A DNA stretch of 64,000 nucleotides from Verrucomicrobiales bacterium. GTDB lineage: Bacteria > Verrucomicrobiota > Verrucomicrobiia > Methylacidiphilales > JAAUTS01. The stretch's first letter is position 1, and every line of letters begins with the position of its first letter. This document shows, one piece after another, positions 2,228-59,920 of this stretch. The notes beneath the pieces are model-generated. The model was given only the letters and a program-made list of their open reading frames with translations. It made no database searches and had not been told where the DNA came from. The translations under genes and the position numbers were made by a program. The stretch covers positions 6,448 to 70,447 of the forward strand of contig JAISDC010000267.1 in NCBI GenBank assembly GCA_031265105.1, given 5' to 3'.

Positions 2228-4699
2228 TTAGAACTGGTGCCGGTAGCCCGCTGACAGTCCCCAAGGTTTGTCATACTTGTCGCCGAAGGAGGCTTCGTAG
2301 TCGAGGTGGAGTTGATTGTCAGCGTCGAGTTGCCAGATGATACCGCCACCGAGTTCGGCTCTGGCACCGTCAGTGTTGGCGCGGGTGGATTGATAACCGT
2401 TTCTGATGACGCCGCCGCTGCTGATGGTTTCGACGCCGCTGATCTTGATATAGGGTTGTAACGCGCCGCTGTTGGTGAGGTTGATGGTTCTGCCGAATAT
2501 GCTACCGAGGCGGAGTTGCAGGGCGTCGAGGTCTTGGGCGCTGATGCTCATCGGGCCGGCGGTGTAGTTCTCGGCGAGGATGCGGAGGTAGTTGACTTGG
2601 AACTGAGGTTCCACAAACCAACCATCGGTGAAGGTAAACTTATTACCGATTTCGAGGCTGCCGCCGAGGTTCACGTCGCTGTAGCTGGCTTTGAGTTGAG
2701 TGTTGCCGTAGGGGGCTTTTAGGTCGTTATCGACACTGGCAGCTTTGAAGGTGGCATCGATGTAGAAGCCGCTGGAGTGGAGCCAGGTGGCGTAGAGGCC
2801 GCCGTAGTAGGAGTTGAGTTCACCGTCAGCACCGGGAGTGCGGTAGTCTATATCACTGCGACCATAGCCGGCATAGACGCCCAAGTATAGGTCACTGTCA
2901 GCACTGATGGTGAACTTGTGATCCGTGCCGAGATCGACGCCGTAGATGAGTTGTTCGTAGGCTTTGCCTGCTACTTGGCTGCCGACGTTTAGCTGTTGGC
3001 CGTAGCTTCTTATCCAGATGTTGTCGATGAGGTTATGGAGCGCGGGCGTCCCGCCCGCTGGCGGGCGAGACGCCCGCGCTCCATAGCGCAACTCACCCAT
3101 GCGCTTGAGCAAACTGTTTTGCTGCGCGAACCACATGGCTTGTTGGATCGCTGCGCTGCTGTTCAATACCGCGCCGGCGGGGCTGGTGCCGTTCTTGATG
3201 AAGTGGTCACCGTCTTTGATAAGTTGGTCAATGCCCCAGTCAATCGGATCCCACTGCCAATTTTCCGTGCCGTCGCCGCTGACGATGCCGGGGAGGATTT
3301 TATTCGGGTCGGCCTTGCCATCGCCGGTGGTGTCGAGGTGAACTATGCCGTCACCGTCAGCGGTGCCGGTGATGGTGATGGAACCGCCTTCGCCGGTGTC
3401 GCTGTTGACATTGATGTTGACGGTGCCGCTGTGGGTCATGTTGTCGAAGATGACTTCATAATCGCCGATGTTCCACACGCCATTGTTCTCACCGTAGTTA
3501 CCGTGGCTGTTTTTGTCGAAAGTCCACACGCTATCGCCGCCGGTGATGAGGTTGCCGCCGGTGTAGCCGCCTTGGCCGGTGGCGCCAGTGTCGAGGATGA
3601 CGGTGACGGCAGCTTCATCGTTCTGCGCGATGTCGCCGAGCAGGGTGCTGTCGCTGCCACTGAGGGTGACCTGCAGGGTGGATGAATCGCTGCCGATGAC
3701 GTTGCCGGTCAGGTCGCTGTGGTACAAGTTTACCGTCGTATCGCCGGCATTGGCAGTCGTGATGTCGCCGGTCAAATCGGTGTTGATGAGGATTGCCGTG
3801 TGGACCCCGGAGTCGCTAGCTTTTACCGCCTCATGGGTTTGTGCAATGGTCACATCCTGCAAGATGGCAGTGCTACTTCCGGAGCCTTGAAACCGTATCC
3901 CGGTTGCATCCTCGCCGGTGGCCGTCAAGATCATGTCCGTCAAATAGACCGCGTTATCGCCGTCACCGCCTACCGCCACAAGATTAGCCGCTGACCCGCT
4001 GGTGGTGATGGAGCCGTGTCGGATGGTGATACCGCCTTCCCCCGCACTCCATGACGCCACTCCGTACGCTAACCCACCGCTGGTGTGAATCTCTATATCG
4101 GTAAAATCCGCCAGGCCGCTGCCGCCGATGCCAAAGGCTCGCGATCCCTCGGTGATAATCCGCACATTGGAACCGCTGACGGTGCTATTGCGGCTGCCAC
4201 TATTGTACACCTCGGTTAAAATGCCATAAGAATTCACGTCGCCCGTGGTGTGGATGACGGCGTTATCAATGGTAATGAGCGCGCCGGCACGCGCCCAAAC
4301 CCCATAGGAGGTCGTGCCACTCGTGGTGATGCGCACATCGTCCAACACCATGTGCCCCTGATAGGCAATCAGGCCAAACGCGCCATTGCCGGAGGTATTA
4401 ATGCTCACCGCGCTGCCACTCAGGAAAGAAGCGGCACTGTTGCCAGTGTTACTAATGTACAGGCCGTGACTGATGCTGCCGCTGGTGTCGATGGTCCACT
4501 CGTTAATGCCCGCAATCGTCCCGCCGTTACGCACAATGACGCCATAACCCCAAACCTGTGAGGTAGTGATGGTGCTTGGATTGATCGGCACCCGGTTGGT
4601 GCCGTCAACGGTCACCGTTTGCGCCAGCGCGCCGGTTGCCAGCCAGGGCCAGAGGCCGAGCAAAACGGCCCAGTTGATTAGTGTTAGTTTGGGGTTCAT
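2228..4699 (-). CDS. Autotransporter outer-membrane protein (beta-helix passenger + C-terminal beta-barrel), paralog 1
   Basis: ORF 2228..4849. The start was moved to M51 (4699), where a signal peptide begins (MNPKLTLINWAVLLGLWPWLATGALA). The passenger is G/T/S/N-rich and repetitive. The last ~280 aa form a classical autotransporter barrel ending GYRHQF. Confidence 0.85.
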   Translation of the reverse strand: MNPKLTLINWAVLLGLWPWLATGALAQTVTVDGTNRVPINPSTITTSQVWGYGVIVRNGGTIAGINEWTIDTSGSISHGLYISNTGNSAASFLSGSAVSINTSGNGAFGLIAYQGHMVLDDVRITTSGTTSYGVWARAGALITIDNAVIHTTGDVNSYGILTEVYNSGSRNSTVSGSNVRIITEGSRAFGIGGSGLADFTDIEIHTSGGLAYGVASWSAGEGGITIRHGSITTSGSAANLVAVGGDGDNAVYLTDMILTATGEDATGIRFQGSGSSTAILQDVTIAQTHEAVKASDSGVHTAILINTDLTGDITTANAGDTTVNLYHSDLTGNVIGSDSSTLQVTLSGSDSTLLGDIAQNDEAAVTVILDTGATGQGGYTGGNLITGGDSVWTFDKNSHGNYGENNGVWNIGDYEVIFDNMTHSGTVNINVNSDTGEGGSITITGTADGDGIVHLDTTGDGKADPNKILPGIVSGDGTENWQWDPIDWGIDQLIKDGDHFIKNGTSPAGAVLNSSAAIQQAMWFAQQNSLLKRMGELRYGARASRPPAGGTPALHNLIDNIWIRSYGQQLNVGSQVAGKAYEQLIYGVDLGTDHKFTISADSDLYLGVYAGYGRSDIDYRTPGADGELNSYYGGLYATWLHSSGFYIDATFKAASVDNDLKAPYGNTQLKASYSDVNLGGSLEIGNKFTFTDGWFVEPQFQVNYLRILAENYTAGPMSISAQDLDALQLRLGSIFGRTINLTNSGALQPYIKISGVETISSGGVIRNGYQSTRANTDGARAELGGGIIWQLDADNQLHLDYEASFGDKYDKPWGLSAGYRHQF
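3035..3084. repeat. REP-like palindrome, family C, inserted in frame in autotransporter 1
   Basis: ATGGAGCGCGGGCGTCCCGCCCGCTGGCGGGCGAGACGCCCGCGCTCCAT, with 14-bp perfect outer arms. Related copies lie at 39876..39925 (paralog 2) and 59420..59465 (intergenic). Confidence 0.8.
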
Positions 4700-4936
4700 G
4701 TTGGTTCTTTCGGTTGGTTGTTTGTGGTTGGTTAAAATAAAGGATTGACGCCTGGTCGCTCCCTGAGCGGAGGCGAATGGGCGGGTTGGCTCGGCAATGG
4801 GGCGAGCCGATCCTTCGGCTCTGCTCAGGATGACGGCGAGGCGGGGCACGGTCAGCGGACGGTGTCCTGCCGCATGGGGAATGAAGCGAACAAAACTCGG
4901 CGGGGAAATTAGAGAGTCGGGGCAGGCGTCGTGCTC

Positions 4937-5024
4937 TGAGCGCGTGAGCGCGTGAGCGCGTGAGCGCGTGAGCGCGTGAGCGCGTGAGCGCGTGAGCGCG
5001 TGAGCGCGTGAGCGCGTGAGCGCG
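4937..5024. repeat. Perfect 8-bp tandem repeat (TGAGCGCG)x11, which reads (CGCGCTCA)x11 on the minus strand
   Basis: Eleven contiguous identical units counted directly, about 238 nt upstream of the autotransporter 1 start codon. Confidence 0.95.
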
Positions 5025-5180
5025 ATGCTTTGATTCTATGGCCTATCTCTATCATCTTCAGCGGGTTACCGGGTTCTCGCTTTGATTTAACCACCGTGTT
5101 TTTTTAGTGGCCTGTGTCAGCGGGTACCGATAACAAGGTGAAACGGTATAGAATCAGCCTAACATGTGCAAGGATTTTTT
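4937..5180 (-). repeat. Element E copy 1: ~156-bp conserved module plus the 8-bp tandem tract
   Basis: The reverse complement of 5025..5180 aligns at roughly 75-80 % (by eye) with 59921..60083. Both end in the same octamer repeat. Conserved blocks include CCTGTTATCGG, GGCCAC.AAAAAAACA, GGTGGTTAA, CGCTGAAGATGA and CCATAGAATC. Confidence 0.75.
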
Positions 5181-7988: not shown

Positions 7989-8630
7989 TTACCCAAGCAT
8001 CCACTCCGGCATATTTTTCAAATCCTCCGGCGTGTGAAAATTAAACACCGGCGTCCGTCCCAACTCCTCCAAAATCGCCGGATTCGTCACCGCCGCCGCC
8101 AAGTCGTCAACATCAACAGAATAATGATTCACAATCACTCCCGCCAATTCACACCCCGACGCGCGCACGCTTTCAATCGTCAACAGCGTGTGGTTCAACA
8201 TCCCCAGCGTCGCCGGCGCGACAATCGCCACCGGCAGCGCCAACTCCCGCGCCCAATCGCGCACAAAATAATTCACCGTCAGCGGCACCAGCCAACCGCC
8301 GACGCCCTCGACCAAAAACGGTCCGGGAAATTTTGTCATCACCGCCTCAACGCCGTCACGCAACGCGCAAAAATCAAACGTTTTGCCCGCCACCAAACCC
8401 GCCGCATACGGCGACAACGGCGCGGCGAGGTGCACCGGATTAATTTGGTTCAACGTCAGCGTCCCGTCATTGGCAGCGGCGAATTGCTCCGCGTCCTCAC
8501 GCCCCCCGCAGGAAATCGGCTTCAACGCCAGCGCCAACTTCCCGCGTCGCCGCAACTCCCGCGTCCACGCCGCCGTGACAAAAGTCTTCCCCACGCCAGT
8601 CCCCGTCCCCGTGATAAAAATTCCGCGCAT
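7989..8630 (-). CDS. bioD: ATP-dependent dethiobiotin synthetase
   Basis: 213 aa with an N-terminal P-loop (MRGIFITGTGTGVGKTFV) and BioD-like length and layout. Confidence 0.9.
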   Translation of the reverse strand: MRGIFITGTGTGVGKTFVTAAWTRELRRRGKLALALKPISCGGREDAEQFAAANDGTLTLNQINPVHLAAPLSPYAAGLVAGKTFDFCALRDGVEAVMTKFPGPFLVEGVGGWLVPLTVNYFVRDWARELALPVAIVAPATLGMLNHTLLTIESVRASGCELAGVIVNHYSVDVDDLAAAVTNPAILEELGRTPVFNFHTPEDLKNMPEWMLG

Positions 8631-8717
8631 ATAAATTCCAAATCACCATTTCCAACTACCAACTGCGGCTGTCGGCGCAGGTCGCCGGCTTCCTGCCGGA
8701 AGCAATTACGTCCATCA

Positions 8718-9233
8718 TCAGAAGTCCTCCAGTCTCATGGCAAAATCTATTTCGTGCCGGAGCGGTATCCCGTTCTGCCCGATATACGGTATGTCAGGCT
8801 TAAACGATTCCCGCTCCCGGTCTATCGCGCCCAAGTTCAAGCCGACCATGTCAAATCCGCGCTTTTGATAAAAGCCTATCGCGTTGATGTTGTCGTTCGA
8901 GGTCAACAGGCGCAGGATTGTACAACCGTTGGCAATGGCCGTCTGCTTTATATTATCAAGCAAAGCAGTACCAAGCCCGGTGCGTGGGCGTTCACTGTTG
9001 AGCGAAACAATTTCACAGGCATCACCGCGGATAATATAGGTCGCGAGTCCGATTACGTTTTCGCCGGATTCGTCCAACGCGATGAAGCCGGCGATTACGG
9101 CGCAGTCGATGATTTCGCTGCGAATCATTATTTGGGCGGTCTGCCACTTACGGGTGAGGTAAGTTGTCACAAGCTCGCGGGTCTCGGAGGTAATCGGCCT
9201 TATGCCGTGCGCGTTCGTCATATTGTAATTCAA
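8718..9233 (-). CDS. GNAT family N-acetyltransferase
   Basis: 171 aa with an acetyl-CoA-binding region (RPRTGLGTALLDNIKQTAIANG ... FYQKRGF). Visibly lower GC than the flanks. It lies between two copies of the bioD 5' end. Confidence 0.8.
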   Translation of the reverse strand: MNYNMTNAHGIRPITSETRELVTTYLTRKWQTAQIMIRSEIIDCAVIAGFIALDESGENVIGLATYIIRGDACEIVSLNSERPRTGLGTALLDNIKQTAIANGCTILRLLTSNDNINAIGFYQKRGFDMVGLNLGAIDRERESFKPDIPYIGQNGIPLRHEIDFAMRLEDF

Positions 9234-9449
9234 GCCTTTTCGATTCCCTATTTCAATCCTTGTAAATCCTGTTTCTCCGTGATTCCGGTTTTATCAGGTC
9301 GTGGCGGTACCCGTTCAAAGTCTTTGTCAAATCGTCCGGCGCATAAATCTCAAAATTTAAAATACCCGTCGCTGATGGCGCAGGTCAGCAACAGCGGCAA
9401 ATGGCGGCGCCTTGACAATTCACCGCGAATATATAATTCACACTAACAT

Positions 9450-9572
9450 GAAATCGGCTTCAACGCCCGCGCCGCGTTTCCGCGCCGCCGCAATTCCCGC
9501 ACCCACGCCGCCGTGACAAAGTTTTTCCAACGCCCGTGCCCGTGCCTGTGATGAAATTCCGCGCATATAAAT
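9450..9572 (-). pseudogene. Degenerate duplicate of the bioD 5' end (about codons 1-39 plus ~6 nt upstream)
   Basis: 9450..9572 aligns with 8512..8636 at ~80 % identity (by eye), including CCGCGCATATAAAT around the start codon. It is a direct repeat 938 bp from the functional copy. Confidence 0.8.
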
Positions 9573-9622
9573 CCCCAAAAGCCGTCAGCAACAACACTAT
9601 TCATGTGGCAAATCACACTGAC

Positions 9623-9749: not shown

Positions 9750-10421
9750 ATGGATTTCAATCAATTCCAAAAATTTTTTTCTGCGATGCGGGTTAATCGT
9801 TATTTGCAAGCCGTTCATGGCGAATCGGACGCCGCCATCAAATTATACCGAAACAATCTGAAAATCGCGCGCGCTTTTCATCCCTTGCTTGGCATTGTGG
9901 AAGTGGCATTACGCAACCGTCTCAATGATTTGCTGACGGTATATTTTCATGACGCGGACTGGATTATTAATCAGAAGAATGGATTCATGTCGGATTCGTC
10001 GTTAACCAACAGCTTTTTACGAGACGAGGTAACGCGAGCGGAAAAAAGATTAAAGCGTATGGGCGTGCCAGTAACGGCGGGAAAAATCATCGCTGAACAA
10101 TCATTCGGTTTTTGGTCGGATTTGTTCGCCAAATATCATTACCGGATTTTGCAAGGACGGGTCATCAAAGCATTTGTCAATCTGCCGCCAAACTGCGGGC
10201 GCAAGGAAGTCTATCGCAAGCTCGGGCAAATCAGAAAATTTCGCAACCGCATCAATCATAACGAACCGGTTTGTTTCAAAGGTGACACGGCGGATTTTAC
10301 TGAGGCACTGAAGGTGCATCAATCCATTGTCTGCATTTTGCAATGGCTGGGACCGGAATTATCTGAATTTGTCACGGGACTGGACGAAGTTCGGTATGAA
10401 ATTTCTAGCGCCGCGTCATAG
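9750..10421 (+). CDS. Abi-like protein (Abi_2 / AbiD-AbiF family)
   Basis: 223 aa. The N-terminal pattern (F..FS..R...YL.....D...A..LY..N..IA.AF...L..VEV.LRN) and C-terminal RNRINH-type helix match my recollection of PF07751 proteins. The surrounding island is low-GC. Confidence 0.7.
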   Translation: MDFNQFQKFFSAMRVNRYLQAVHGESDAAIKLYRNNLKIARAFHPLLGIVEVALRNRLNDLLTVYFHDADWIINQKNGFMSDSSLTNSFLRDEVTRAEKRLKRMGVPVTAGKIIAEQSFGFWSDLFAKYHYRILQGRVIKAFVNLPPNCGRKEVYRKLGQIRKFRNRINHNEPVCFKGDTADFTEALKVHQSIVCILQWLGPELSEFVTGLDEVRYEISSAAS

Positions 10422-12043: not shown

Positions 12044-13411
12044 TTAATTCACAACCTCTTCGATCCCCTTGCACAACGCGCTGACCATGACGTCAACTTC
12101 AGCGGGCGTCGTCGTGTACGGCGGCATCAACAGCAACACATCACGCCCAGCCGGGCGCGTGAGCAGGCCGTGTTTTTTCGCCGCCTCGCACACGCGCGCG
12201 CCGACGCGCAGCGACGGGTCAAACGGCTCGCGCGTGGAAAAATCCTTCACCAATTCGATTGCCAGAATACAGCCCTCCTGCCGCACGTCGCCGACCGCTG
12301 GCAGTGACCAAAATTTTTCATGCGCCGCTGTCAACGCCGCTGCCAATCGCCGCTGACGGTCGGCGCAATTGTCGCTTTGCAAAATATCCAACGTCGCCAG
12401 CGCCGCCGCGCAACCGAGTTGGTTGCCGGTGTAACTGTGACCGTGGAAAAATGTCCGCGTCGCGTCGCCGCGAAAACCGTCAAAAATTTTCTCTGTCAGC
12501 AACGTCACCGCCAGCGGCAGATAACCACCGGTGAGCGCCTTCGCCAGCGCAACCAAATCCGGCGCGACCTGTTCTTTTTGCCACGCGAATATCGCGCCCG
12601 TGCGTCCGAAGCCGGTCATCACTTCGTCGAGAATCACCAGCGCGCCGTGCCGTTGCGCGATGGCGCAGGTTTCCGCCAGATAATTGTCCGGATGCATGAT
12701 GAAGCCCGCCGCCCCTTGCACGCGCGGCTCGACGACCCACGCCGCCGCGCGCGCACCGTCAGCGGCGAATTTTTTCTCCACCGCTGCGATACACTCGCGC
12801 CCGCACCGCGCGTAAGCGCGCGCGTCAGCGCGTTGCGGCGCGGCTTGGTTGAACGGGCAGCGGTAGCAATACGGCACCGGCACCTCGTCCGACTCGAACA
12901 GCATGTTTCTATAACAATGATGAAACAACTTGCTATGCCCGACGCTCATCGCGCCGACCGTGTCCCCGTGATACCCCGCTGACAGTGACACGAATTTTTT
13001 CCGTTGCGGCTCGCCGTTCTGCGCGAAAAACTGATACGTGATTTTCAACGCCGCCTCAATCGCCGTCGCCCCGTCGTCGGAAAAAAAGCAGCGCGTGAGC
13101 CGGTCATCGTCAGCGAGTTCGACCAGCCGTTTCCCCAACACCGGCGCGAGTTCATTGGTCAGCCCAAGGAACGACGAATGAGCAATCCGGTCAAGCTGCG
13201 CCCTAATCGCCCCGCTGACCGTGGCGTTGCGATGCCCGTGAATATTCGTCCAAATGGAAGAATTGCCGTCGAGATATTTATTCCCCTGGTCGTCGCACAA
13301 CCACGACCCGTCCCCGCTGACAATGACCGTCGGCGCATAATCCGCTGCCAGCCAGGCATCCGTCAGCGTGAACGGATGCCACAAATATTTTTTATCCAGC
13401 GCGGCGGGCAT
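12044..13411 (-). CDS. bioA: Adenosylmethionine-8-amino-7-oxononanoate aminotransferase
   Basis: Class-III PLP aminotransferase (YLWHPFT, GNSSIWTNIHGH, SAGYHGDT, ILDEVMTGFGRTG). The start was moved from 13465 to MPAALDKKYLW (13411) because the first 18 ORF codons are REP-A sequence. Confidence 0.9.
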   Translation of the reverse strand: MPAALDKKYLWHPFTLTDAWLAADYAPTVIVSGDGSWLCDDQGNKYLDGNSSIWTNIHGHRNATVSGAIRAQLDRIAHSSFLGLTNELAPVLGKRLVELADDDRLTRCFFSDDGATAIEAALKITYQFFAQNGEPQRKKFVSLSAGYHGDTVGAMSVGHSKLFHHCYRNMLFESDEVPVPYCYRCPFNQAAPQRADARAYARCGRECIAAVEKKFAADGARAAAWVVEPRVQGAAGFIMHPDNYLAETCAIAQRHGALVILDEVMTGFGRTGAIFAWQKEQVAPDLVALAKALTGGYLPLAVTLLTEKIFDGFRGDATRTFFHGHSYTGNQLGCAAALATLDILQSDNCADRQRRLAAALTAAHEKFWSLPAVGDVRQEGCILAIELVKDFSTREPFDPSLRVGARVCEAAKKHGLLTRPAGRDVLLLMPPYTTTPAEVDVMVSALCKGIEEVVN

Positions 13412-13414
13412 CGG

Positions 13415-13452
13415 AAAATTTAACCACAGATTTACACAGATGGACACCGATA
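13415..13452. repeat. REP-A half element (TTAACCACAGATTTACACAGATGGACACCGAT)
   Basis: Member of the GTGTYCATCCGTGTCCATCCGTGGTTAAAA family seen at eight sites in the window. Confidence 0.75.
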
Positions 13453-13526
13453 GTTTGATTTTCAATATTTACAGATAGGAGCCATATAGTGTGTTATCGT
13501 CAGCGTCAGGGCTAGGGCGGCAGGCG

Positions 13527-14386
13527 TTAAAATATGTGTCCCGTATTTTTTTCAATCAGTTGGTCGTCGCGGTAATCGAAGCCGAATGATTTGTGTCCGT
13601 TCGTGGAAACAAAGACATACGTACCGAAATTTTCCCTCACGCCTATCATGATCGCCCAAGTGTCAAATTCGTCGGTGCCGAGCACGACCGCTGGCAAATC
13701 GGCGAATTTTTGCGTGCCGTCGCTGATGAAACGCTCGCCTAGTCGCAGCGCTTGCCAGTCCGCTTCGCTACGGATGACTTGCCATTTGCCGGATCGTTCT
13801 TTTACTGTCAGCGTGCCATAGACCGCGCGCTGCGCATCCCGCCGGTGCCGAGCGTTTCATAACGCGGCGGTCAAAAATATACAGCCGCTGCGGACCACGG
13901 TCAGCGCTTCGTTTGCCGAGTCGGGTTTCGTCAAGCACATCTTCCAGTGCGGCGCGCGCGGTGTCGTCTTTCAGCGCGTCCAGCCCGTTCCGCGTAATCG
14001 CTCACTTGTGTTGCCCATTTGTCAAACTCATCCGTGCCGGCCACCACGGTCTGCGGGCCGAGTTTTTCCCGCCGTTCGCCGGAGACCAATTCCGCCCATT
14101 GGACTTCTGATTTTATCATTTTCCACTGACCGTCATTTTTACTCGTGGTCAGTGTGCCGCTGATGGTGGCGGTCATGCCGGCGTCGGCGGTTTTCTTCAC
14201 CACGCGACGGTCGAGCACGCTGTCCTTGATGTCGCTGGCTTCGTTCAATAACAAACAGTTTTCCAACAGCCGAGCCTGCAACTGGCGGCGGTCTTGCACC
14301 GTCAGGCGTTCGTAGCGTAACGAAAGGATGTCGTCATTTGGCGGGCGGATTAGCGGCCTGACTTTTCGGCCCGGCGGTGTTACCAT
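13527..14386 (-). pseudogene. Hypothetical two-module protein gene disrupted by two +1 frameshifts
   Basis: Three consecutive frames each carry part of a coherent product. Two similar modules are present (GTLTTSKNDGQWKMIKSEVQWAELVSGERREKLGPQTVVAGTDEFDKWA and GTLTVKERSGKWQVIRSEADWQALRLGERFISDGTQKFADLPAVVLGTDEFDTWA). The last segment has no start codon of its own. Confidence 0.45.
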
Positions 14387-14392: not shown

Positions 14393-15286
14393 GTGAAAAT
14401 CCTGACTCCCGGCGACTGGCCGGATTACGAATTGATTGACAGCGGCGGCGGCGAGAAGCTGGAGCGGTTCGGCGCCCGCGTGTTGCGGCGGCCGGAGCCG
14501 AAGGCGGTGTGGGCGCGGTCGCTGCCGGCGGACGAGTGGCGGCGGCTGGCGGACACGACGTTCACGGCGGGCGTCGGCCTCGGCCAGCCGGGGCGGGAGG
14601 ACCGCGGGACGTGGCGCGCGGACGGCGGGCGGCGCGAGCGGTGGTCGGTGCGCTTCCAGTATCAGCGGCTGGATTTGCGCCTGCGGCTGGGGCTGACCGC
14701 GTTCAAGCACGTCGGCGTGTTTCCCGAACAGGCGCCGAACTGGCGGTGGATTTATGACACGACGCGGTCGCTGCCGGTGACCGCGCCGCGGGTGCTGAAC
14801 TTGTTCGCCTACACGGGCGGCGCGTCACTGGCGGCGCGCGCGGCGGGGGCAGCGGTGACGCATGTGGACTCGGTGCGGCAAGTCGTGACCTGGGCGCGGG
14901 AGAACATGACGGCGTCGGGGCTGACGGACATCCGCTGGATTGTGGACGACGCACTGAAGTTCGCGCAACGCGAGGCGCGGCGCGGCAGTGTGTATCACGG
15001 CATCCTGCTCGACCCGCCCGCCTACGGCCACGGCGTTGACGGTCAGCGGTGGAAGCTGGACGAGAATATTTTGGAGTTGCTGCAAACGTGCCGCGCAATC
15101 CTGGCGCCGCGCGACAGTTTCCTGTTGTTGAACTTGTACTCCAACGGCTTCTCCGCGCTGGTGGCGGACACGCTGACGCAGACGGTCTTTGGTCCCGCCC
15201 GCGAGCGCGAGTGCGGGGAGCTGGCGCTGACTGACCGTTTCAACAAGCGTCTGCCGCTGAGTGTGTTTTCGCGGGTGCGATTATAG
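14393..15286 (+). CDS. Class I SAM-dependent methyltransferase (COG1092 / RlmI-like)
   Basis: 297 aa with a GTG start. Motifs include DYELIDSGGGEKLERFG, the SAM-binding VLNLFAYTGGASLAAA, and LLDPPAYG. Confidence 0.8.
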   Translation: MKILTPGDWPDYELIDSGGGEKLERFGARVLRRPEPKAVWARSLPADEWRRLADTTFTAGVGLGQPGREDRGTWRADGGRRERWSVRFQYQRLDLRLRLGLTAFKHVGVFPEQAPNWRWIYDTTRSLPVTAPRVLNLFAYTGGASLAARAAGAAVTHVDSVRQVVTWARENMTASGLTDIRWIVDDALKFAQREARRGSVYHGILLDPPAYGHGVDGQRWKLDENILELLQTCRAILAPRDSFLLLNLYSNGFSALVADTLTQTVFGPARERECGELALTDRFNKRLPLSVFSRVRL

Positions 15287-15343
15287 ACCATCGGGTTGAT
15301 TTTATCTCGCCGGTAAAATCAACTGGCAAACAGGCTATTGTTT

Positions 15344-15547
15344 TTAGGCAACCGGTTTTCTTTTATTGCGAAAACAAAGAATGGCGATGATGAGTCCAAT
15401 GGCTATGGCGACCAGATGTGCCATATATACGGTAACAGTATAATCTCCCGCGGTTTCACCACTGATTAGCTTGGACAGCAAGGCAATTAGGTGTGCAAGA
15501 GCGAATAACGCGGCAAGTGAGCCGATAACATAACGGAGGATTTTCAT
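15344..15547 (-). CDS. Small hypothetical membrane protein (2 TM helices)
   Basis: 67 aa (GSLAALFALAHLIALL ... LVAIAIGLIIAILCF). It sits in a ~345-bp low-GC insert between duplicated methyltransferase 3' ends. Confidence 0.45.
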   Translation of the reverse strand: MKILRYVIGSLAALFALAHLIALLSKLISGETAGDYTVTVYMAHLVAIAIGLIIAILCFRNKRKPVA

Positions 15548-15625
15548 GCTTCATCATGATTTATGGAGAGATTGAGAATTTGTCAAATTTATTTTAAGGA
15601 ATCACCCTGACCGGGCAATTGGCAC

Positions 15626-15774
15626 TTCAACGGTTTTCCGCACTGGCGGCCGACACGCTGACGCTGACCGTCTTCGGTCCCGCCCGCGAGCGCGAGTGCG
15701 GGGAGTTGGCGCTGACCGACCGTTTCAACAAGCGTCTGCCGCTGAGTGTGTTTTCACGGGTGAAGTTCGCGTAA
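15626..15774 (+). pseudogene. Duplicate of the methyltransferase 3' end (last ~45 codons plus an alternative stop)
   Basis: 15626..15762 aligns with 15140..15277 at ~88 % (by eye). It ends ...SRVKFA-TAA, versus ...SRVRL-TAG in the intact gene. Confidence 0.8.
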
Positions 15775-15806
15775 CCTTGCCCTCCAACCGCAAAGCCGCC
15801 GAGGCG

Positions 15807-15904
15807 CGCAGCGCTTTGGAGTGCGGCAGTCCCCTGCCGATTTCTTCGACAGCATACGGAAAAAACCAAAGCGGCACAGGAGTGCCGCATTCCAAAGCGC
15901 TGCG
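15807..15904. repeat. REP-like hairpin, family D (CGCAGCGCTTTGGAGTGCGGCA ... TGCCGCATTCCAAAGCGCTGCG)
   Basis: 22-bp arms with one mismatch and a ~54-nt loop. Confidence 0.8.
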
Positions 15905-15945
15905 CGCTGACCGTGTCCACCCACCGCATGGCAACTGCCATTGAA

Positions 15946-18015
15946 TTACACGTCACTCTTCGACAACAACGCCCGCGCCGCGCTGACGAAGCCGGCGGTG
16001 CCGAGGCCGTATTTGTCGTACAGCTCATCGGCGGTGTAGGCGGATTGGCCGAAGACGCCGGGGATGCCGAGGCTCCGCCCGCTGATGCTCACGCCCGCGT
16101 TGATGAGCGCGTGGAATAATTGCGCGCCGAAGCCGCTGTTCAACTGGTGGTCCTCGGCGACGACGACGCGGCCCTTGGTCTTGCGCACTGCCGCGCTGAT
16201 GGTGGGCAGGTCAATGCGGTTGACGAAGGGGCTGTTGATGACCGTCGCCGACACTCCGTCAGCGGCCAGTTGGTCGGCGGCGGCGAGGGCTTTGCCGACT
16301 AGCGGGCCGTTGGTGACTAGCGTCACGTCCGTGCCTTCGCGCAAAACTTGCGCCCGGCCCCATTCGTACCGCGCGTTGTCCTGCCAGGCCACCGGATAAT
16401 TTTCGCGGCCGAGGAAGAAGACCACCGATTCGCCGTCGCGCCCGGCCTCACGGTCGGCGGCGATGCGTTGAATCGCTTGATAGAGGTACGCCTCGGCCTC
16501 GCCCGCGCACGAGAGCGCGATGACGATGGTGCGCGGGATGGGGCTGACGGCGGCGAAATACGTGCTGGCTTGGTGCGACGCGCCGTCGGCGGCGTCCTGA
16601 AAGCCGGTGTGCGAGAACAGCGCGATGACCGGCGCCTGTGAGATGGCGGTCATGGTCAGCGGCAGCAGGCCCTTGGTGACGCCGAATTGCGCGAAGGTGT
16701 CCACCAGCGGGATGAGGCCGAGTTTCGCCAGGCCGGTCGCGGTGCTGACCATGTTCGCCTCGGCGATGCCCACGTCGAGCGCGCGGTCGGGGTAGGTTTT
16801 TTGGAACGCGGCGATGCCGGTCGAGCCGGCGAGGTCCGCTGACACTGAGAACACGGGGTAGCCGTCCTGCACGGCGCGAATCGCCGCGCGTGACAGGCCC
16901 TCTTGAATCTTGGTCTTTTTCGGCCCGCTGACGGTGACCGGCGGCGCGGCCTTTTTCGCGGCTTCTTTGTCGAGCCACTGCTGGCGCAACGCCCGCGCCC
17001 ACGTGACAAATTCTTCCGGCGCGGCGCCGCTGTAAATTTCGTTAATCCAGTCGGGCAACTTGTCCGCGTTGCCGAGCGGGAAGCCGTGACCGCCGGCGGC
17101 GTTTTCCTCGGTCGCCTTGATGCCGTAGCCCTTGACCGTCTTCAACCACAGCGCGACCGGCTTGTTAGGATTATTTCGCGCCGCTGACAATGCGTCCTCG
17201 AGCGCGTGATACACGGCGGGCAAGTCGTTGCCGCGCGCTTCCTTGATGACGTGCCAGCCGAGCGTCGTCAGCGCCTCAAACGTCGGCGTCATGCTGAACG
17301 AATCCTTGGTGATGCGGCCGCTGAGCTTGGTGTCGTTGTCGCTGATGATGAGCACGAACGGCGCCAGCAACGCTTTGCCCGCCAAGCCGGGGATGGCCGC
17401 GAGCGCCTCCTTCGCCTCGCCCTCCATCGCCGCGCCGTCGGAGAGGATGCACAACGTCGCGCGGTCGCGCCGCAGCAGACCGTCGGCGAGCGCCAGGCCC
17501 TGCGCCTGCGGCAGGCTGGAGCCGAGCGGGCCGTTGCTCAACAACACGCCCTCGGGGTTGAGGTGTGACTCGCCGTGGCCGGTGAGCTTGCTCTTGAGGC
17601 TGCGGAAGTTTTTCAAATCGTCGAACGTCAGCCCGTCGAAGCCGTAGTTGGCGCGCACGGCGTAGATGCCGTTCTCCGCGTGCCCCGCGTCGTTGACGAA
17701 ATTATAAGCGTCAAACCACTCGCGCCCGCTGACGCTGAACATGAGCGCGTGAATGGCGGCGGACGCCTCCGCCAGCGCCGCCGGCCCGCCCCAATGACAG
17801 GCCGCGCCGCCCATGACCGCGTGCATGTCCATCAGCGCGACCAGCGCCCGCGTGGCGCGCGGGTCGGCGACGGTGACCGGCTGGCCGGCGCGGTCACTGA
17901 CGGTGACCGAGTATTTCGGCGGATTTTTCGGCGTCCCCGCGAGGCGCGGTGTGACCTTCAGCGGCTGCAACGGTTTCGCTTCCAATGTTTCCGCAACGAC
18001 GGTGTGTGCTCCCAT
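15946..18015 (-). CDS. Transketolase-family thiamine-diphosphate enzyme
   Basis: 689 aa. The TPP-binding region includes NGPLGSSLPQAQGLA, ILSDGAAMEGEAKEA and ISDNDTKLSG. Pyrimidine-binding and C-terminal transketolase-like domains follow. Confidence 0.75.
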   Translation of the reverse strand: MGAHTVVAETLEAKPLQPLKVTPRLAGTPKNPPKYSVTVSDRAGQPVTVADPRATRALVALMDMHAVMGGAACHWGGPAALAEASAAIHALMFSVSGREWFDAYNFVNDAGHAENGIYAVRANYGFDGLTFDDLKNFRSLKSKLTGHGESHLNPEGVLLSNGPLGSSLPQAQGLALADGLLRRDRATLCILSDGAAMEGEAKEALAAIPGLAGKALLAPFVLIISDNDTKLSGRITKDSFSMTPTFEALTTLGWHVIKEARGNDLPAVYHALEDALSAARNNPNKPVALWLKTVKGYGIKATEENAAGGHGFPLGNADKLPDWINEIYSGAAPEEFVTWARALRQQWLDKEAAKKAAPPVTVSGPKKTKIQEGLSRAAIRAVQDGYPVFSVSADLAGSTGIAAFQKTYPDRALDVGIAEANMVSTATGLAKLGLIPLVDTFAQFGVTKGLLPLTMTAISQAPVIALFSHTGFQDAADGASHQASTYFAAVSPIPRTIVIALSCAGEAEAYLYQAIQRIAADREAGRDGESVVFFLGRENYPVAWQDNARYEWGRAQVLREGTDVTLVTNGPLVGKALAAADQLAADGVSATVINSPFVNRIDLPTISAAVRKTKGRVVVAEDHQLNSGFGAQLFHALINAGVSISGRSLGIPGVFGQSAYTADELYDKYGLGTAGFVSAARALLSKSDV

Positions 18016-18219: not shown

Positions 18220-21200
18220 TTAATTGGCATTTGGAGTTTGGCATTTGGAATTTTCCCCGCCGGGAAGACTCGCCGCCGCCAATTCCTCCCTTGCGCTGTG
18301 GATGAGGAAATGCAGCCGGTTGAAAATATTCACCTCACTCACGCCCGGGTCGAAGTCCAGGCACAGCAAATTCAGGCGCGGATACAAATCGCGCAAACGG
18401 CGCTCAATACCCTTGGCGACCAGTTGATTGGCGATGCAGCCGAAGGGTTGCACGCTGACGGCGTGGTGGATGCCGCGTTCGGCGAGGGCGGACAACTCGG
18501 CGGGGATGAGCCAGCCCTCGCCGTATTGCGCGGCGGGGCTGACGAGGCGCGTCGCGGCGGCGTGACCGTCAGCGAGATTTTCCAGCGGTTGCTGATAACG
18601 AAACCCGGCGGCGGCGCGGGTGAATTTTTCGCGGTACAACTCCAGCACTGTTCGCAGCGCGGGGTCTAGCAAATCGCTGACGGTGAGGCGGGACAGGTGC
18701 TGCTCACGGTTGCTGCGGCGGTTGAAAAATTCCTGCAGGAAAAAATCCGCCAGCGGCGGCACGACCGGCTCCACGCCTTGCGCGATGAGCCACTCGACCA
18801 GGTGCCGGTTGCCGGCGGCGTTGTGCTTGACGTAAATCTCGCCGACCACGCCGACGCGCGGGCGCGGCGCTGACGATGGCGTGACGGCGTTGAACTCGCG
18901 CGCGGCGGCGCGCAGCAAGGCGGGCAACGCGGCGGCGTCCCGTCGCCGCACCCGCGCCACCCCGTCGGCGAGATACCGGTCGCGCACCCGCGCGGCGGCG
19001 CCGGGCGCGGTCTCGCGCGGCGCGGCGGCGTGATACATTGACGCGAGACTGTCAGCGTAAAACAGCGCGGCGACGGCGAGCCGGCGGCGCCCGCGCCAAC
19101 GCAGGCGAAAACCGGGCTGCGCGTTGCGCACCGCGCCGGCGGCGGTGCCGATGGCGACCACCGGCACGTCGGCGAAACCGGCGGCGCTGACGGCGCGGCG
19201 GATGAGCGCGGCGTAAGCGGTGGCGCGGCATTGCCCGCCGGTCTGCGTGATGGCGAGGGCGACCTGGTCGCGCCGGTGGCGGCCCGACTCGAGCGCGCGG
19301 ATGAAATCGCCCGCCACCAGCGTCGCCGGATAACACACCTCATTGTTGGCGAACCGCAAGCCGCGCTCGGCGGACGCGGCGTCGGGCGGCGGCAGCGTGA
19401 CGGCGCGGTGCCCCAGCAACTCCAGCAACGGCGCGATGAACGGCGAGTGGCACGCGGAGAAAAACGGCACCAGCAGCGCGCGGTCACGGTCAGCGGCGGT
19501 GTATAATTCCCCTTCCGTGAAGGGGTGGCGGCGCGCGCCGACGGGGTAGTTCAGCGTTTTGCGCTGCGTCCCCTCTAACGCTGAACTACCCCGTCCGCTG
19601 CGCGGCCACCCCTTCGCGGAAGGGGAATTGCCCAAGCCGCAATCACGCGCGGCTTCCAATGACCTTAGCGGAGCGGAACCATTATTATCCGCCGACGGTG
19701 AGGAAAAATTCACCGCCGCTGACGGTGCCACTCGCCGCGCGAGGCTCTCAATCAGCGAGCGCGCGCGCAACCGCAACGCGCCGGGCGTTTGCATATCGTC
19801 CACCTTCAAAACCGTGTGACTCTTGCCCGCGCGCCGCAACCGGTCGCCGACCGAGTCCGTGAGAAACGCGTCCGGCCCGCAACCGAACGACGTGAGTTGC
19901 ACCAACTGCACCTGCGGCGGCGCGGCGGCCACCCACACGGCGGCCTGGCGCAAGCGGTTGGGATACGACCAGCGACCGGCGGCGGGCGCGCCGCCCCGCG
20001 CGACATCCTCGCTGACCACATCGGCGCCGAGCGCGCACAACAACTCGGCGGCGCGGTGCTGTATCAGCGGGTCGGCGTGATACGGCCGCCCCGCGAGCAC
20101 CAGCAGCGGGCGCGAACCGTCATTGCCGGCGACGATGGCGCGCGCGTGCTCCGCCGTCGCCCTGACAAATTCATCCTGCGCGGCGAGCGCTTGCGCGAAG
20201 GCTCGGGCAAAAATCCTCGCGCTAACGTTGAGCGTGCCGACCAAATACTCGCGGCAGGATTTTCGCAACAACCCGACATCGCCGAACGTCAGCACCGGCG
20301 CGTCCAGCGGCACGCCGTGACGGTCGGCGGGATTGATGGCGCTGCGGATGACGTCGGCGTAGCCGCTGACGATGGGGCAGTTGTACGCGCCGTCCCGCTC
20401 GCGCACGGCGAACGGCATCAGGATGCGGTCCACGTCGCGCGCGAGCAAATCGCGGACGTGCCCGTGCGCGAGCTTGGCGGGGAAACAAATGTTGTCCGCC
20501 ATGACGCTCGCCGCGCCGCTCTCCGCCAGCGCGGGCGTGGAGGGCGCGGAGAGCGTGACGCCGCACCCGCCGGCGGTGAGCAGCGTGTGCCAGAACGGAA
20601 AATTCTCGTAGCAACCGAGCGCGCGCGGGATGCCGATGTTCGGTCGCTGACGGTCACGCTCACCGTCAGCGGCGGCGCGGTCGAACAGCAGTTGCAGTTT
20701 GCGCGGGAAAAAATTCGCGCCGCGCCGCCGCCGCTGGCCGCTGTTGGTGAAAATTTTCTCGCACTTGTTGCCGGAACAAAACGCGCCGCCGCCGGCGAAC
20801 CGGCGCAGCGTCACGCGGCAATGATTGTCGCAACCGGGACACACGCGCTCCCCGGCGGTCGAGTTCACCGGCAGCGTCAGTGCCGCCAGTGGGCGCGGCG
20901 GCGCGGTCACCGTCAGCGCGCGCCACGCCGCGCCGTAAGCGCCCATCAGCTCCGGCAGCGGCGCGATGGCGATGGGTTTCCCTAACAACCGCTCCAGCGC
21001 CCGCGCCACGGCGTGATTCCGCATGACGCCGCCCTGCACGACCACGCGCGGGCCGAGTTCGTCCGCGTGTTTGAGCTTGAGCACTTTGTACAAGCAATTT
21101 TTCGCCACCGCGTAGGCCAGGCCGGCGGCGAGGTCGGCGGGCGCGGCGTTCTCGCGCAACGCCTGCCGCACCCTGGAATTCATGAACACCGTGCAGCGCG

Positions 21201-23404: not shown

Positions 23405-23432
23405 AAATGTCAGAAAAATAAACCGGGCCAAG

Positions 23433-23586
23433 AACGCTGAACTACCCCGGCGGCTGGCGCCGCCACCCCTTCACGGAAGGGGAATCGCTGGCGCGGAGAC
23501 CAATCCCGCTGACCCTGACCTATGCGCGAGCAAATTCCCCTTCCGTGAAGGGGTGGCCGCGAATGCGGACGGGGTAGTTCAGCGTT
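23433..23586. repeat. REP-B pair in the opposite arrangement (unit - 47 nt - inverted unit)
   Basis: AACGCTGAACTACCCCGG..CCACCCCTTCACGGAAGGGGAAT ... AATTCCCCTTCCGTGAAGGGGTGG..GGGGTAGTTCAGCGTT. Confidence 0.8.
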
Positions 23587-23857
23587 CGGTGCTACCTGAA
23601 AACGACAGAAAAATCAGGCGCAGCCACAAATTGATGACCAACAGCGTCACGGAGCCGAGCAGCCATAACATCACGGTCTTGTCACCGTCAGCGACCGGAT
23701 GGCCGAGCCAATCAAAGCGGATGGGAATTTGTTGCGGCGCGCGGGAATAAACGTGGAGACCATAAAACAAAACTATCGCAAACACCAACCACGCGCCGAT
23801 GACATTAAACCAATCGCGAGCCGTTACCGGCACTTTAATTTTCGGCGGTTGATTCAT
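23579..23857 (-). CDS. Small membrane protein, DUF1648-like
   Basis: ORF 23579..23905; a start at MNQPPKIKVP (23857) is preferred. It has two TM helices and an IPIRFDWLGHPVADGDK motif. The 3' end runs into REP-B. Confidence 0.4.
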   Translation of the reverse strand: MNQPPKIKVPVTARDWFNVIGAWLVFAIVLFYGLHVYSRAPQQIPIRFDWLGHPVADGDKTVMLWLLGSVTLLVINLWLRLIFLSFSGSTER

Positions 23858-26651: not shown

Positions 26652-26750
26652 TTTTTTAACCACCGATGAACACGGATGCACACGGATAGTTCGCGGTACC
26701 GCGTAAATTAACATCATCCGTGTCCATCGGTGTTCATCGGTGGTTAAAAT
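26652..26750. repeat. REP-A full inverted pair
   Basis: TTTTTTAACCACCGATGAACACGGATGCACACGGAT ... CATCCGTGTCCATCGGTGTTCATCGGTGGTTAAAAT. Confidence 0.85.
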
Positions 26751-37029: not shown

Positions 37030-38403
37030 CTAGCGGGCGGTTTCCAGTTTTTGCAGCAGGAAGTTGATTTGCTGGCGCAGGTGTTCATTGCGCGCCATGT
37101 CGGCCTCGGTTTTTTTGCAGGCATGCAGGACGGTGCCGTGGTCGCGACCGCCAAAAGCCGCGCCGATTTCCTGCAAGGATTTCTGGGTCAGCCGGCGGCA
37201 CAGGTACATGGCCGCCATGCGCGGGATGGCGATGTTATTCGGGCGGCGCTTGCTGGTCATGTCGGTCATGCGGATATCGAAGGTTTCCGCCACCTTCTGC
37301 TGAATGGTTTCGATGGTCAGCATGTTGCGGGCTTCCTGCTGGATGAAATCTTTCAGCAGTTCCTCGACCTGCGCCTGGGTCAGTTTTTTATCGTTGAGCG
37401 CGGCCCAGGCCGCGACCCGGTTGAGCGCGCCCTCGAGCCGGCGGATGTTGGCCTTGACGCGCTCGGCGATGAACAGCAGCACCCCGTCGCCCAGCCGGAC
37501 TTCCAGCTTGGCGGCCTTGGCCTTCAGGATGGCCAGCCGGGTCTCGATGTCCGGCGGCGCCAACTCGGCCGCCAAGCCCCACTCGAAGCGGGACACCAGG
37601 CGCTGTTCCAGGTTCTTGACCTCGGACGGCGGACTGTCGCAGGTTAGGATGATCTGCTTGCTGCCGTCAAACAGGGCGTTGAAAGTGTGAAAGAATTCCT
37701 CCTGCGAGCGTTCCTTGCCGGCGAAAAACTGGATGTCGTCAATCAGCAGCAGATCCGCCTGGCGAAAGCGTTTGCGAAACTTGACGATTTCGCCGTGCTG
37801 GATGGCGGAGATGAATTCGTTGGTGAATTGCTCGGAAGTGACATAGACCACCTTGGGCGGCTTGCCGCCTTTTTTGGTTTTGACGATTTGGTGGCCGATG
37901 GCGTGCATCAGGTGCGTCTTGCCCAACCCGACCGCGCCATGGATAAACAGCGGGTTGTAAATTCTGGCGGGCGACTTGGCCACCGCTTTGGCGGCCGCGG
38001 TGGCGAATTCGTTATTGGCGCCGACGACAAAGGTTTCAAACACGTAACGCGGAATCAGGTCGCTGACGGTCGTCGCTTTGGCGCTGTGGGGGCGCTCCTC
38101 GGCAGGCGGCTCCTTGGCGGCGGATTCCCTGGCGCCCCGGTTGGCGGCCACCTCAAAGACCACGTCGAGGTACTGCCCGGCGGCCAGCGCCAGCGATTCC
38201 TTGAGCTGCGTGGTGTAGTTTTCCTCAATCCAGAACGGGTAGATGGAATTATCCACGCCCAGCACCAGGCGCCCGGCTTCCAGGGACAGCGGCTTGACGG
38301 GTGCGAACCAGCGGCGAAACGCATCGGGAGAAATCAATTTCTGCAATTCCTGGCAGGTCTTCTGCCAAAGTTCCTGCGGATCGCTGATGAAGGGTGCTTC
38401 CAT
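37030..38403 (-). CDS. dnaA: Chromosomal replication initiator protein DnaA
   Basis: 457 aa with AAA+ motifs (GAVGLGKTHLMHAIG, LLLIDDIQF) and a C-terminal DNA-binding domain (FGGRDHGTVLHACKK). Confidence 0.95.
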   Translation of the reverse strand: MEAPFISDPQELWQKTCQELQKLISPDAFRRWFAPVKPLSLEAGRLVLGVDNSIYPFWIEENYTTQLKESLALAAGQYLDVVFEVAANRGARESAAKEPPAEERPHSAKATTVSDLIPRYVFETFVVGANNEFATAAAKAVAKSPARIYNPLFIHGAVGLGKTHLMHAIGHQIVKTKKGGKPPKVVYVTSEQFTNEFISAIQHGEIVKFRKRFRQADLLLIDDIQFFAGKERSQEEFFHTFNALFDGSKQIILTCDSPPSEVKNLEQRLVSRFEWGLAAELAPPDIETRLAILKAKAAKLEVRLGDGVLLFIAERVKANIRRLEGALNRVAAWAALNDKKLTQAQVEELLKDFIQQEARNMLTIETIQQKVAETFDIRMTDMTSKRRPNNIAIPRMAAMYLCRRLTQKSLQEIGAAFGGRDHGTVLHACKKTEADMARNEHLRQQINFLLQKLETAR

Positions 38404-43200: not shown

Positions 43201-43267
43201 ACTGCGCGCTGACGATGAGTCGGTTTCGCGATTCTTCGGTGATTATGCCGGTTGAATTACCAATCTT

Positions 43268-43367
43268 ATTTTGTGACTCATCTATGCGATGCAACGATAT
43301 TTGTGACTCAAAAAATCGTATCTATGAGACACAAGGTAGCTTGTATCGCACAGATGAGTCACAAAAT
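43268..43367. repeat. 100-bp unit bounded by 16-bp perfect inverted repeats (ATTTTGTGACTCATCT / AGATGAGTCACAAAAT) with a third TTTGTGACTCA copy inside
   Basis: Arms at 43268-43283 and 43352-43367, with an internal copy at 43310-43320. The right arm overlaps the Fic stop codon. Confidence 0.8.
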
Positions 43368-59805: not shown

Positions 59806-59920
59806 GCTAATATTTAAGCGCGAAATGTTGCCGGCGTAAATACTCTCTATGTTCAGGTGTAGCGTCACCCGTTATGACCAGCTCATCGAGGTATATATGA
59901 AATTTGTGGACGAGGCCTAA

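Follow-up and report, generated by a model that had tools for sequence, protein, structure and literature searches.

Homology-facilitated illegitimate recombination (HFIR), or single-crossover integration, left duplications of the anchor locus in 56 of 60 Escherichia coli recombinants, and the 14 duplications that were sequenced are 109-950 bp long (PMC3240628); the same route is recorded for the transformation or conjugation of Acinetobacter, S. pneumoniae and P. stutzeri in references cited by PMC5361080. In polymorphic toxin arrays (Rhs, contact-dependent inhibition [CDI]/TpsA, MafB and the type VI secretion system [T6SS]; PMC2935791, PMC5361080, PMC3848433), an incoming part of a conserved gene, together with new low-GC DNA, takes the place of the resident 3' end; proposed mechanisms are circular intermediates for the displacement of Rhs C-termini (PMC2935791) and an HFIR or displacement logic for T6SS effector-immunity arrays (PMC5361080). 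Prophage e14 supplies the E. coli icd gene with a substitute 3' end that keeps the gene functional, leaving the resident end as the icdC pseudogene; the two copies differ mainly conservatively, and recombination between them restores a chimeric gene (PMC13626634, citing Hill et al. 1989). Here we describe a related structure in 64,000 nt of DNA (hereafter the window), part of a 72-kb contig in a termite-gut metagenome-assembled genome (MAG) of a Verrucomicrobiales bacterium (locus tags LBK71_). An intact methyltransferase gene has its 3' end repeated, the two copies lying on either side of a short low-GC insert that carries a single gene, for a small membrane protein, on the opposite strand. 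We favor, with roughly even confidence, the reading that this scar arose by one-ended homologous recombination with an illegitimate second joint, much as in HFIR.

The likeness to HFIR lies in one homologous anchor within a conserved gene, one non-homologous joint, foreign DNA trapped between them, and the fact that no recombinase is required. The HFIR events were obtained in the laboratory with selected markers, whereas those considered here are natural, are fixed in wild strains, do not disrupt the target gene, have occurred repeatedly, at several gene termini, and stack in layers. Polymorphic toxin arrays resemble the present locus in that the old end persists downstream, silent and decaying, and in that serial events build arrays (compare bioA, below). 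Their C-terminus is a variable toxic payload with its immunity gene, whereas at the methyltransferase locus the C-terminus SRVRL is conserved in both states, and neither a variable toxic C-terminus nor an immunity gene on the same strand is present; the genes affected here are housekeeping enzymes, at 5' as well as 3' ends, with unrelated cargo on the opposite strand. The e14 element is 15 kb long, with its own site-specific recombination and SOS-induced excision, whereas the insert here is 0.34 kb, and no tyrosine or serine recombinase was found in or beside it (37 open reading frames [ORFs] of the window scanned, and the Pfam hits of the sister-strain contig L095). This kind of event is already known, and the documentation here is unusually clear; the case stands out for its three to four events in 64 kb, at both 5' and 3' termini of housekeeping genes, for a layered bioA and for a natural empty-site control.

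Structure of the duplicated methyltransferase gene end

The locus comprises the following features (window coordinates, with the strand in brackets where there is one).

14393-15286 (+): intact class I S-adenosylmethionine-dependent methyltransferase gene, RlmI/RlmK-like, 297 aa (PF10672 and PF03602 matches)
15134-15277 (+): repeat copy A, the final ~48 codons of the intact gene (self-comparison and BLAST)
15278-15313 (+): tail of copy A, the codons R-L-stop plus ~25 nt of 3' untranslated region (UTR), likewise duplicated in sister strain L095
15294-15324: hairpin with a 13-bp stem, the stem present in both the minimum free energy and the centroid structures (overall z-score only -1.3)
15344-15547 (-): cargo gene for a 67-aa membrane protein with two predicted hydrophobic helices (33 homologues; low GC content at third codon positions [GC3])
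15591-15618 (-): promoter-like site TTGCCC-16-TAAAAT at the right insert edge, lying upstream of the cargo gene (1 found versus 0.2 expected)
15618/15619: putative illegitimate joint at which the insert meets copy B, GGGCAAT/TGGCACTTCAACGG, with the same sequence in the window and contigs L095 and L096
15619-15762 (+): repeat copy B, a displaced and apparently non-functional methyltransferase 3' fragment (indels, a V-to-A change, clustered differences from A)
15763-15774 (+): pseudo-tail KFA-TAA, at a secondary rearrangement junction (15762/15763; contrast with copy B of L095)

Copy B lies 485 nt downstream of copy A. The ungapped cores (15149-15277 versus 15634-15762) are 92% identical, BLAST aligns 15138-15277 with 15624-15762 at 91.4% (E = 4e-50, which led us to reject a chance repeat), and inclusion of the decayed edge (15134-15277 versus 15619-15762) gives 130 of 145 positions, or 89.7%. 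A first-pass annotation of this DNA had noticed the repeat, which is real, and had placed its identity at ~88%; this value is slightly low, as 126 of 138 positions (91.3%) agree over the segments that it had delimited. The longest exact blocks shared by the copies are 30 and 38 nt. Each copy has a GC content of 65%, versus 42.5% in the 341 nt between them (15278-15618), which contain a single ORF and are absent from 84 orthologous loci, as expected of foreign DNA. The low-GC insert with a small ORF on the opposite strand, encoding two membrane-spanning segments, had likewise been described in the first pass, and that description holds.

Copy A is continuous with the normal gene, because its 5' part is identical to that of sister strains (contigs L014 and L095) and its tail codons, CGA TTA, are those of an 82%-identical orthologue (L015). 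The methyltransferase has 8000+ homologues, of which the nearest outside the clade are 78-80% identical and have the C-terminus SRV/IRL; NCBIfam gave only weak rRNA methyltransferase matches. The endings of the two copies in the window are SRVRL-TAG (A) and SRVKFA-TAA (B). Copy B is strongly diverged over the ~50-65 nt nearest the insert and carries indels at its extreme 5' edge (a 1-nt insertion in the window and in L095, and an extra 1-nt deletion in the window alone), indicating that it is decaying. One of six proximal differences changes V to A at a residue that is constant in all orthologues inspected. Copy B is also mosaic: it differs from A at 6 of 34 positions in 15151-15184 versus 2 of 93 beyond (Fisher P = 0.005), and its distal part has window-specific states in common with A.

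The 129-nt ungapped core holds 10 differences between the copies, 8 synonymous and 2 non-synonymous (proportions of sites differing: pS 0.22, pN 0.022). Two of these 10 are specific to copy A of the window (at these positions copy A of L095 agrees with B), and polarization with L095 and L014 leaves 6 synonymous and 2 non-synonymous differences, which argues against neutral decay (P = 0.008-0.019). Given this synonymous bias, the copies look like alleles of different lineages.

The cargo gene is compositionally foreign, with a GC3 of 0.44 versus 0.8-0.9 in core genes (0.88 in the methyltransferase gene). Its product has hydrophobic segments at about residues 7-28 and 40-60. An exhaustive profile-free search recovered 33 relatives, most of them 62-101 aa long, which align end to end at 34-50% identity; the family conserves G9, G51 and C58 and has the consensus MKxxKxxIGxLAxLFAxxH...GIxIGxxIAxxCFR. 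Homologues with readable context are chromosomal genes in Phycisphaerae and relatives, two of them (L005 and L012) at a syntenic position between a metallophosphatase gene and uvrC. No flanking repeats surround the homologues in L005-L013, which are likewise convergent with the 3' ends of housekeeping genes. From these conserved chromosomal positions and the lack of flanking repeats, the family is probably an ordinary resident gene, and we rejected the idea that the small protein travels elsewhere together with gene-end repeats. A phage or plasmid origin was also rejected, as collections of plasmids, phages and viral contigs yielded no matches. The protein has no PADLOC or NCBIfam match, and a type I toxin-antitoxin system, which we considered, has no Rfam match either. 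The hairpin at 15294-15324, whose left arm is the 3' UTR of the gene and whose right arm belongs to the insert, is likely, on its predicted fold, to be a bidirectional terminator between the convergent methyltransferase and small-protein genes.

No integrase or transposase was found by Pfam in 37 window ORFs, including low-GC ones (the scans left out about a dozen longer ORFs), and none of the precomputed Pfam hits of L095 and of a further contig, L097, is an integrase, excisionase or phage gene. The window contains no tRNA and no Rfam family anywhere, and no terminal inverted repeats link the ends of the insert. With a duplication of ~144-176 nt (versus 2-15 bp) and without such inverted repeats, the structure does not have the form of a transposon or miniature inverted-repeat transposable element. 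The joint between insert and copy B is a sharp boundary (15618/15619) without extended homology.

Our evidence base consists of short contigs of uncultured strains. A tblastn search with 54 residues of the methyltransferase C-terminus against the 84 orthologous loci found a second copy in the window only, and the closest outgroup loci (L001-L004; proteins P0002-P0005, too distant at 73-80% aa identity) have neither insert nor second copy, with a different synteny. This comparison with orthologous loci, which the first-pass annotation had proposed, thus gave no sign of an insert or repeats conserved across distant relatives, and the structure is lineage-specific. A degenerate repeat probe, ERECGELALTDRFNK, had 0 matches in metagenome_contigs and genome_contigs, and an exact 30-mer of the cargo had 0 in metagenome_contigs; at this stringency, those collections do not contain the lineage. 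The only close contig that approaches the locus through the downstream transketolase gene (L094, from bin192) breaks inside that gene at window position 16190, short of the locus. The contig ends of L014 (15216) and L024 (15042) were considered as signs of an insertion polymorphism, a reading that we dropped in view of the exact 119-nt overlap of L014 and L095; as this overlap equals the assembler's k, the ends of L014 and L095 (the latter at 15098) are unitig boundaries, uninformative on the insert.

The sister strain and the scars at bioD and bioA

A search for other copies of the insert and its protein, another proposal of the first pass, did find one. The 90%-identity cluster of the small protein has a second member, P0283 (70 aa, 96% identical), which is encoded on JGI contig L095 (2191 bp) and again on a Logan contig of identical sequence, L096. 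L095 is 95% identical to window 15098-15667 and has in common with it copy A, its tail, the hairpin region, the small gene, the promoter region and the cargo-B joint; the identity of this joint in the window and in L095/L096 indicates a single founding event, whose product at least two lineages now carry. Copy B of L095 keeps its first ~49 nt, then has a ~83-nt deletion between two GCTGA motifs and resumes as ...GTTTTCGCGGGTG CGG TTA TAG GTCGTCGGGATGTTTTATCC, that is, the RL-stop tail plus 21 nt. A 46-nt self-repeat of the contig (1573-1618 versus 1980-2025, 93.5% identical) matches this B tail to its own A-side tail. Because the RL-stop and the 21 nt are duplicated in L095, the original repeat unit extended beyond the stop codon; it ran from about codon 248 through the stop plus ~21 nt, roughly 176 nt.

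Given the normal tail of copy B in L095, the KFA-TAA of the window is a later junction of the window lineage and no alternative gene end, and we rejected SRVKFA as a genuine alternative C-terminus. The earlier statement that each copy has its own ending does not survive this comparison. Downstream of copy B, L095 is unlike the window and carries a 201-aa ORF and a CDP-alcohol phosphatidyltransferase gene.

Between the window and L095, the cargo and inner B have diverged by 2.3%, versus 8 of 97 positions in the adjoining gene end (P = 0.012), and the most diverged segment of all is the cargo-proximal part of A. We did not rely on the 2.3% as evidence that the cargo is younger than the split of its hosts, because ordinary mosaic recombination between strains can give the same pattern. 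Two smaller differences were seen. A 27-nt patch directly behind the methyltransferase stop codon (15287-15313 versus L095 1985-2012) contains 12 differences, with flanks that are 95-98% identical; the patch perfects the hairpin stem in the window, the stem of L095 being imperfect, and looks like a quasi-palindrome correction or a compensatory change. The small-protein genes of the window and P0283 differ at 3 positions, all non-synonymous (I47M, N61K and a GAA-to-TAA stop), the stop shortening the window protein by 3 residues.

Comparable scars are present at the 5' ends of two further genes, bioD and bioA, in the same window.

8509-8659 and 9447-9595: duplicate of the bioD 5' end, flanking cargo 8660-9446
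8718-9233 (-): GNAT acetyltransferase gene, the bioD cargo
13210-13411 (-) and 62751-62952 (+): duplicate of the bioA 5' end
61867-61971 (2747-2864 in L097): oldest bioA mini-remnant, with an 'MPAAL + REP-like upstream' start
61867-61971, 61965-62680, 62751-62973 and 13210-13465: spans of the bioA array, which includes an MNT/HEPN toxin-antitoxin pair

Contig L097, from the same metagenome as L095, has the gene order MNT-HEPN-bioA-lepB-217aa-Abi_2-bioD, without the GNAT insert or the split bioA, and is therefore an empty site for both bioD and bioA. The first-pass annotation had linked the methyltransferase structure to that at bioD, and this kinship holds up, as does the architecture (gene end, cargo, gene end). 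In three-way alignments, the displaced fragments match L097 in the native upstream flank and in most character states, and the gene-attached copy is divergent; judged from these alignments, the displaced fragments of bioD and bioA are the resident alleles and the gene-attached copies the incoming ones. Over 122 nt of bioD, 10 changes (7 of them synonymous) are specific to the intact copy, versus 2 specific to L097 (P = 0.001), and the bioD remnant has two frameshifts as well as non-synonymous changes.

The window and L097 differ by 0-3 per 100 nt in native tracts, by 7-15 per 100 nt in bioD over ~400 nt from the GNAT cargo onward, and by 4-9 per 100 nt in bioA and lepB over ~1.85 kb from the second bioA cargo onward. 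A donor-type tract inside a conserved gene, on one side of the cargo, is therefore present at both loci (~0.4 kb at bioD, ~1.85 kb at bioA). Tracts that run from the cargo past the duplicated segment are what a linear fragment would leave if it had crossed over homologously at a distance and been joined illegitimately at its other end; they are not predicted by a crossover confined to the repeat, as in circle integration or at an attachment (att) site.

The bioA locus is layered, with an old mini-remnant, the MNT/HEPN pair, an MFAAL start and then, in the window only, a second cargo and an intact MPAAL-type gene. The MFAAL start is that of the intact bioA in L097, which has the first layer only, and of the displaced bioA' in the window, and the intact bioA of the window has the start 'MPAAL + REP upstream', as in the oldest remnant; from these starts (MPAAL versus MFAAL), the bioA copies are different alleles and not in-situ duplicates. 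The second bioA remnant has an internal deletion and, once an inversion of the window (see below) is undone, is followed by ~1 kb of cargo before the intact bioA. The bioA copies are then direct repeats about 1.1 kb apart, in the architecture seen at bioD.

Two further observations concern the neighborhoods of these genes. In the cargo upstream of bioA (13527-14340 [-]), a small gene is present as two degenerate copies in tandem (motif ...VV(A/L)GTDEFD(K/T)WA..., frameshifted), for which there is no Pfam or NCBIfam match. An Abi_2-family ORF adjoining the bioD remnant (9750-10421; also in L097) matches the PADLOC model PD-T4-5 (E = 3e-12) and is a probable anti-phage gene.

Possible origins of the duplicated gene end

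Under the favored route, DNA of a co-resident relative, about 6-10% diverged, would have entered the cell carrying its own methyltransferase gene end together with a neighbor new to the recipient (a low-GC cassette of promoter, small membrane-protein gene and terminator arm). One end of the fragment would have recombined homologously inside the conserved methyltransferase gene, and the other, having no homologue, would have formed an illegitimate joint with the resident gene, some 50 codons ahead of the stop of that gene (15618/15619). The product would be an intact gene with the incoming 3' end (copy A), the cargo, and the resident 3' end displaced downstream (copy B), which, untranslated, would then decay; later, in the window lineage only, a rearrangement would have removed the tail of B at 15762 and made the fortuitous KFA-TAA. 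Both this route and the direction of transfer are argued at the methyltransferase locus by analogy with bioD and bioA, together with the substitution pattern. The first-pass annotation had considered the downstream copy to be probably the original gene end. The parallel with bioD and bioA upholds a displaced resident end; the mosaic state of B restricts the pristine portion to its distal part at most.

Several points weigh against this route. The searches turned up no relative whose methyltransferase locus is an empty site, so that the donor tract and the resident copy are not directly demonstrable there, and the expected donor arrangement (the methyltransferase gene and then the cargo, without copy B) was not found in any database. 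The tests of synonymous bias have only 8-12 substitutions behind them, and the mosaicism of B has to be explained by something further, be it gene conversion between the copies or a long hitch-hiking of inner B. The two copies of L095 carry the same tail plus 21 nt with only 2 differences, a result that plain in-situ duplication gives as well. At bioD and bioA, ordinary strain-to-strain mosaic recombination could mimic part of the donor-tract signal.

A Campbell-type origin, in which a circle carrying the gene end and the cargo enters by a single crossover within the repeat, would give exactly the order gene end, cargo, gene end. The circle could have come, for example, from recombination between A and B in the donor or from a self-ligated fragment, and pop-out and re-integration would be possible in any relative with the gene. 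Experimental duplications of 109-950 bp (PMC3240628) and the proposal for Rhs tip displacement (PMC2935791) are precedents, the breakpoint in A/B divergence near 15185-15221 could be the crossover, and the identical joint in two lineages suits a traveling unit. The low divergence of cargo and inner B relative to the adjoining gene end would suit it too, but is obtainable by ordinary strain recombination, and the cargo-proximal part of A, unexpectedly for a segment that travels with the cargo, is the most diverged between the window and L095. As the donor-like tracts at bioD and bioA reach 0.4-1.9 kb past the duplicated segment, we consider a Campbell-type crossover unlikely.

In-situ duplication has the economy of a single event and requires no donor allele: the cargo would have been captured at a break with long staggered ends or at a tandem-duplication junction with the duplication of ~176 nt, after which B would have decayed and its distal part been re-homogenized from A. 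The RL-stop tail plus 21 nt on both copies of L095 is in keeping with this, as are the decay of B next to the insert (indels, and V to A at a constant residue) and a distal B that is 98% identical to A, with common window-specific states, as gene conversion would give. The synonymous bias of the substitutions (P ~0.01-0.02) speaks against it, as do the gene-attached copies at the bioA and bioD loci, which are demonstrably different alleles (P-type and F-type starts at bioA, branch excess at bioD). We know of no bacterial mechanism for target duplications of ~150-200 nt around a complete foreign gene, which also counts against in-situ duplication, and we regard it as improbable.

An island of the e14/icd type, inserted by an integrase together with a replacement 3' end and later stripped of most of the element and its integrase, is distinctly improbable. 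Its architecture does match: in e14 (PMC13626634), icd extends into the prophage, with the C-terminal pseudogene icdC at the far end, and the exact 30- and 38-nt blocks of the present repeat could contain an att core. Neither the 37 scanned ORFs nor the Pfam hits of L095 and L097 contain an integrase, excisionase or phage gene, however, and both lineages carry the cargo as a neat single-gene cassette of 0.3 kb, whose protein has no phage, plasmid or viral matches. Three genes (bioD at its 5' end, bioA twice at its 5' end, and the methyltransferase gene at its 3' end) would need three or four decayed elements, and the donor tracts beyond the repeat at bioD and bioA misfit a fixed att crossover.

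An assembly artefact, in which two strain alleles of the gene end are concatenated in the MAG contig, is suggested by a community that holds several 94-97% identical strains and by relatives' contigs that break near the locus, and is very improbable, given that the same insert-B joint occurs in three independent assemblies (the NCBI MAG, JGI 3300042643 and Logan SRR14710922), that the frameshifted and truncated 5' edge of B is impossible for a functional allele, that the longest exact A/B block (38 nt) is far under k = 119, and that the 119-nt overlap of L014 and L095 marks ordinary unitig boundaries.

One-ended recombination with an illegitimate second joint thus remains our preferred reading. 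We also entertain, as a doubtful extension of it, the idea that units of gene end, cargo and gene end are self-perpetuating mobile cassettes without a recombinase, whose termini act as universal homology arms for the RecA of the host. If this were true, RecA alone could excise a unit as a circle or move it into any relative with the gene, and reuse of one terminus would stack displacement arrays, as at bioA.

Accessory genes mostly adjoin conserved genes without mobile-element machinery, and their route of arrival is usually inferred statistically. Scars such as those described here would be direct footprints of that route, with the illegitimate joint recorded by the displaced end, the homologous crossover by the divergent tract and the empty site by a sister strain. 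The origin-proximal 64-kb window holds three or four events, with a small membrane protein, a GNAT acetyltransferase, an MNT/HEPN pair and a degenerate small-gene array as cargos. These findings suggest that co-resident strains of this termite-gut community routinely gain genes through one-ended recombination with one another, and that housekeeping genes, at their 5' and 3' ends, also undergo the terminal displacement described for polymorphic toxin loci. Genome searches for short displaced fragments of gene termini would be a simple way to count such events.

The inversion and other features of the window

The window includes the origin region, with yidC, dnaN, dnaA and mnmG. Upstream of the methyltransferase gene, contigs L014, L024 and L016 match window 63091-63362 and the nucleosidase-like gene at 63364-63972, in reversed orientation, and a PNP_UDP_1 gene lies directly upstream of the methyltransferase gene in L003. 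The reversed match in the relatives indicates that the window carries a ~49-kb inversion, with breakpoints near 14340 and 63090. Its midpoint, at 38.7 kb, falls in the upstream region of dnaA (37030-38403), so that the inversion is symmetric about the likely origin; placement of the origin by GC skew was uninformative. We rejected the ideas that the inversion was caused by the inverted bioA repeats and that these are the product of a duplication with inversion, because the breakpoints are ~0.1-0.9 kb away and the repeats are of different allele types.

Two further features follow copy B.

15804-15907: palindromic element of 104 nt, separating copy B from the transketolase gene, with hairpins resembling terminators on both strands
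15946-18015 (-): transketolase gene, convergent

The first of these belongs to families of 80-160-nt palindromic intergenic elements, found also at 19505-19629, 23432-23587, 26654-26749, 43266-43369, 48457-48545, 49644-49720 and elsewhere. One such family (..AACCACGGATGGACAC..) translates as 'ICVNLWL' ahead of the real ATG of bioA at 13411, so that the first-start ORF (12044-13465) places this peptide before the ATG. Further low-GC accessory genes encode Fic (43359-44486) and Bro-N (51745-52662) proteins. Two autotransporter genes (873 and 701 aa) have 1.5-kb C-terminal beta-domain regions that are 86% identical (2228-3718 and 39069-40559) and lie in direct orientation, 36.8 kb apart. A tandem octamer, TGAGCGCG, is present in about 11-13 copies at 4921-5040 and is kept in L097 (670-760), and a related stretch of 217 nt recurs, inverted, at 59918-60134.

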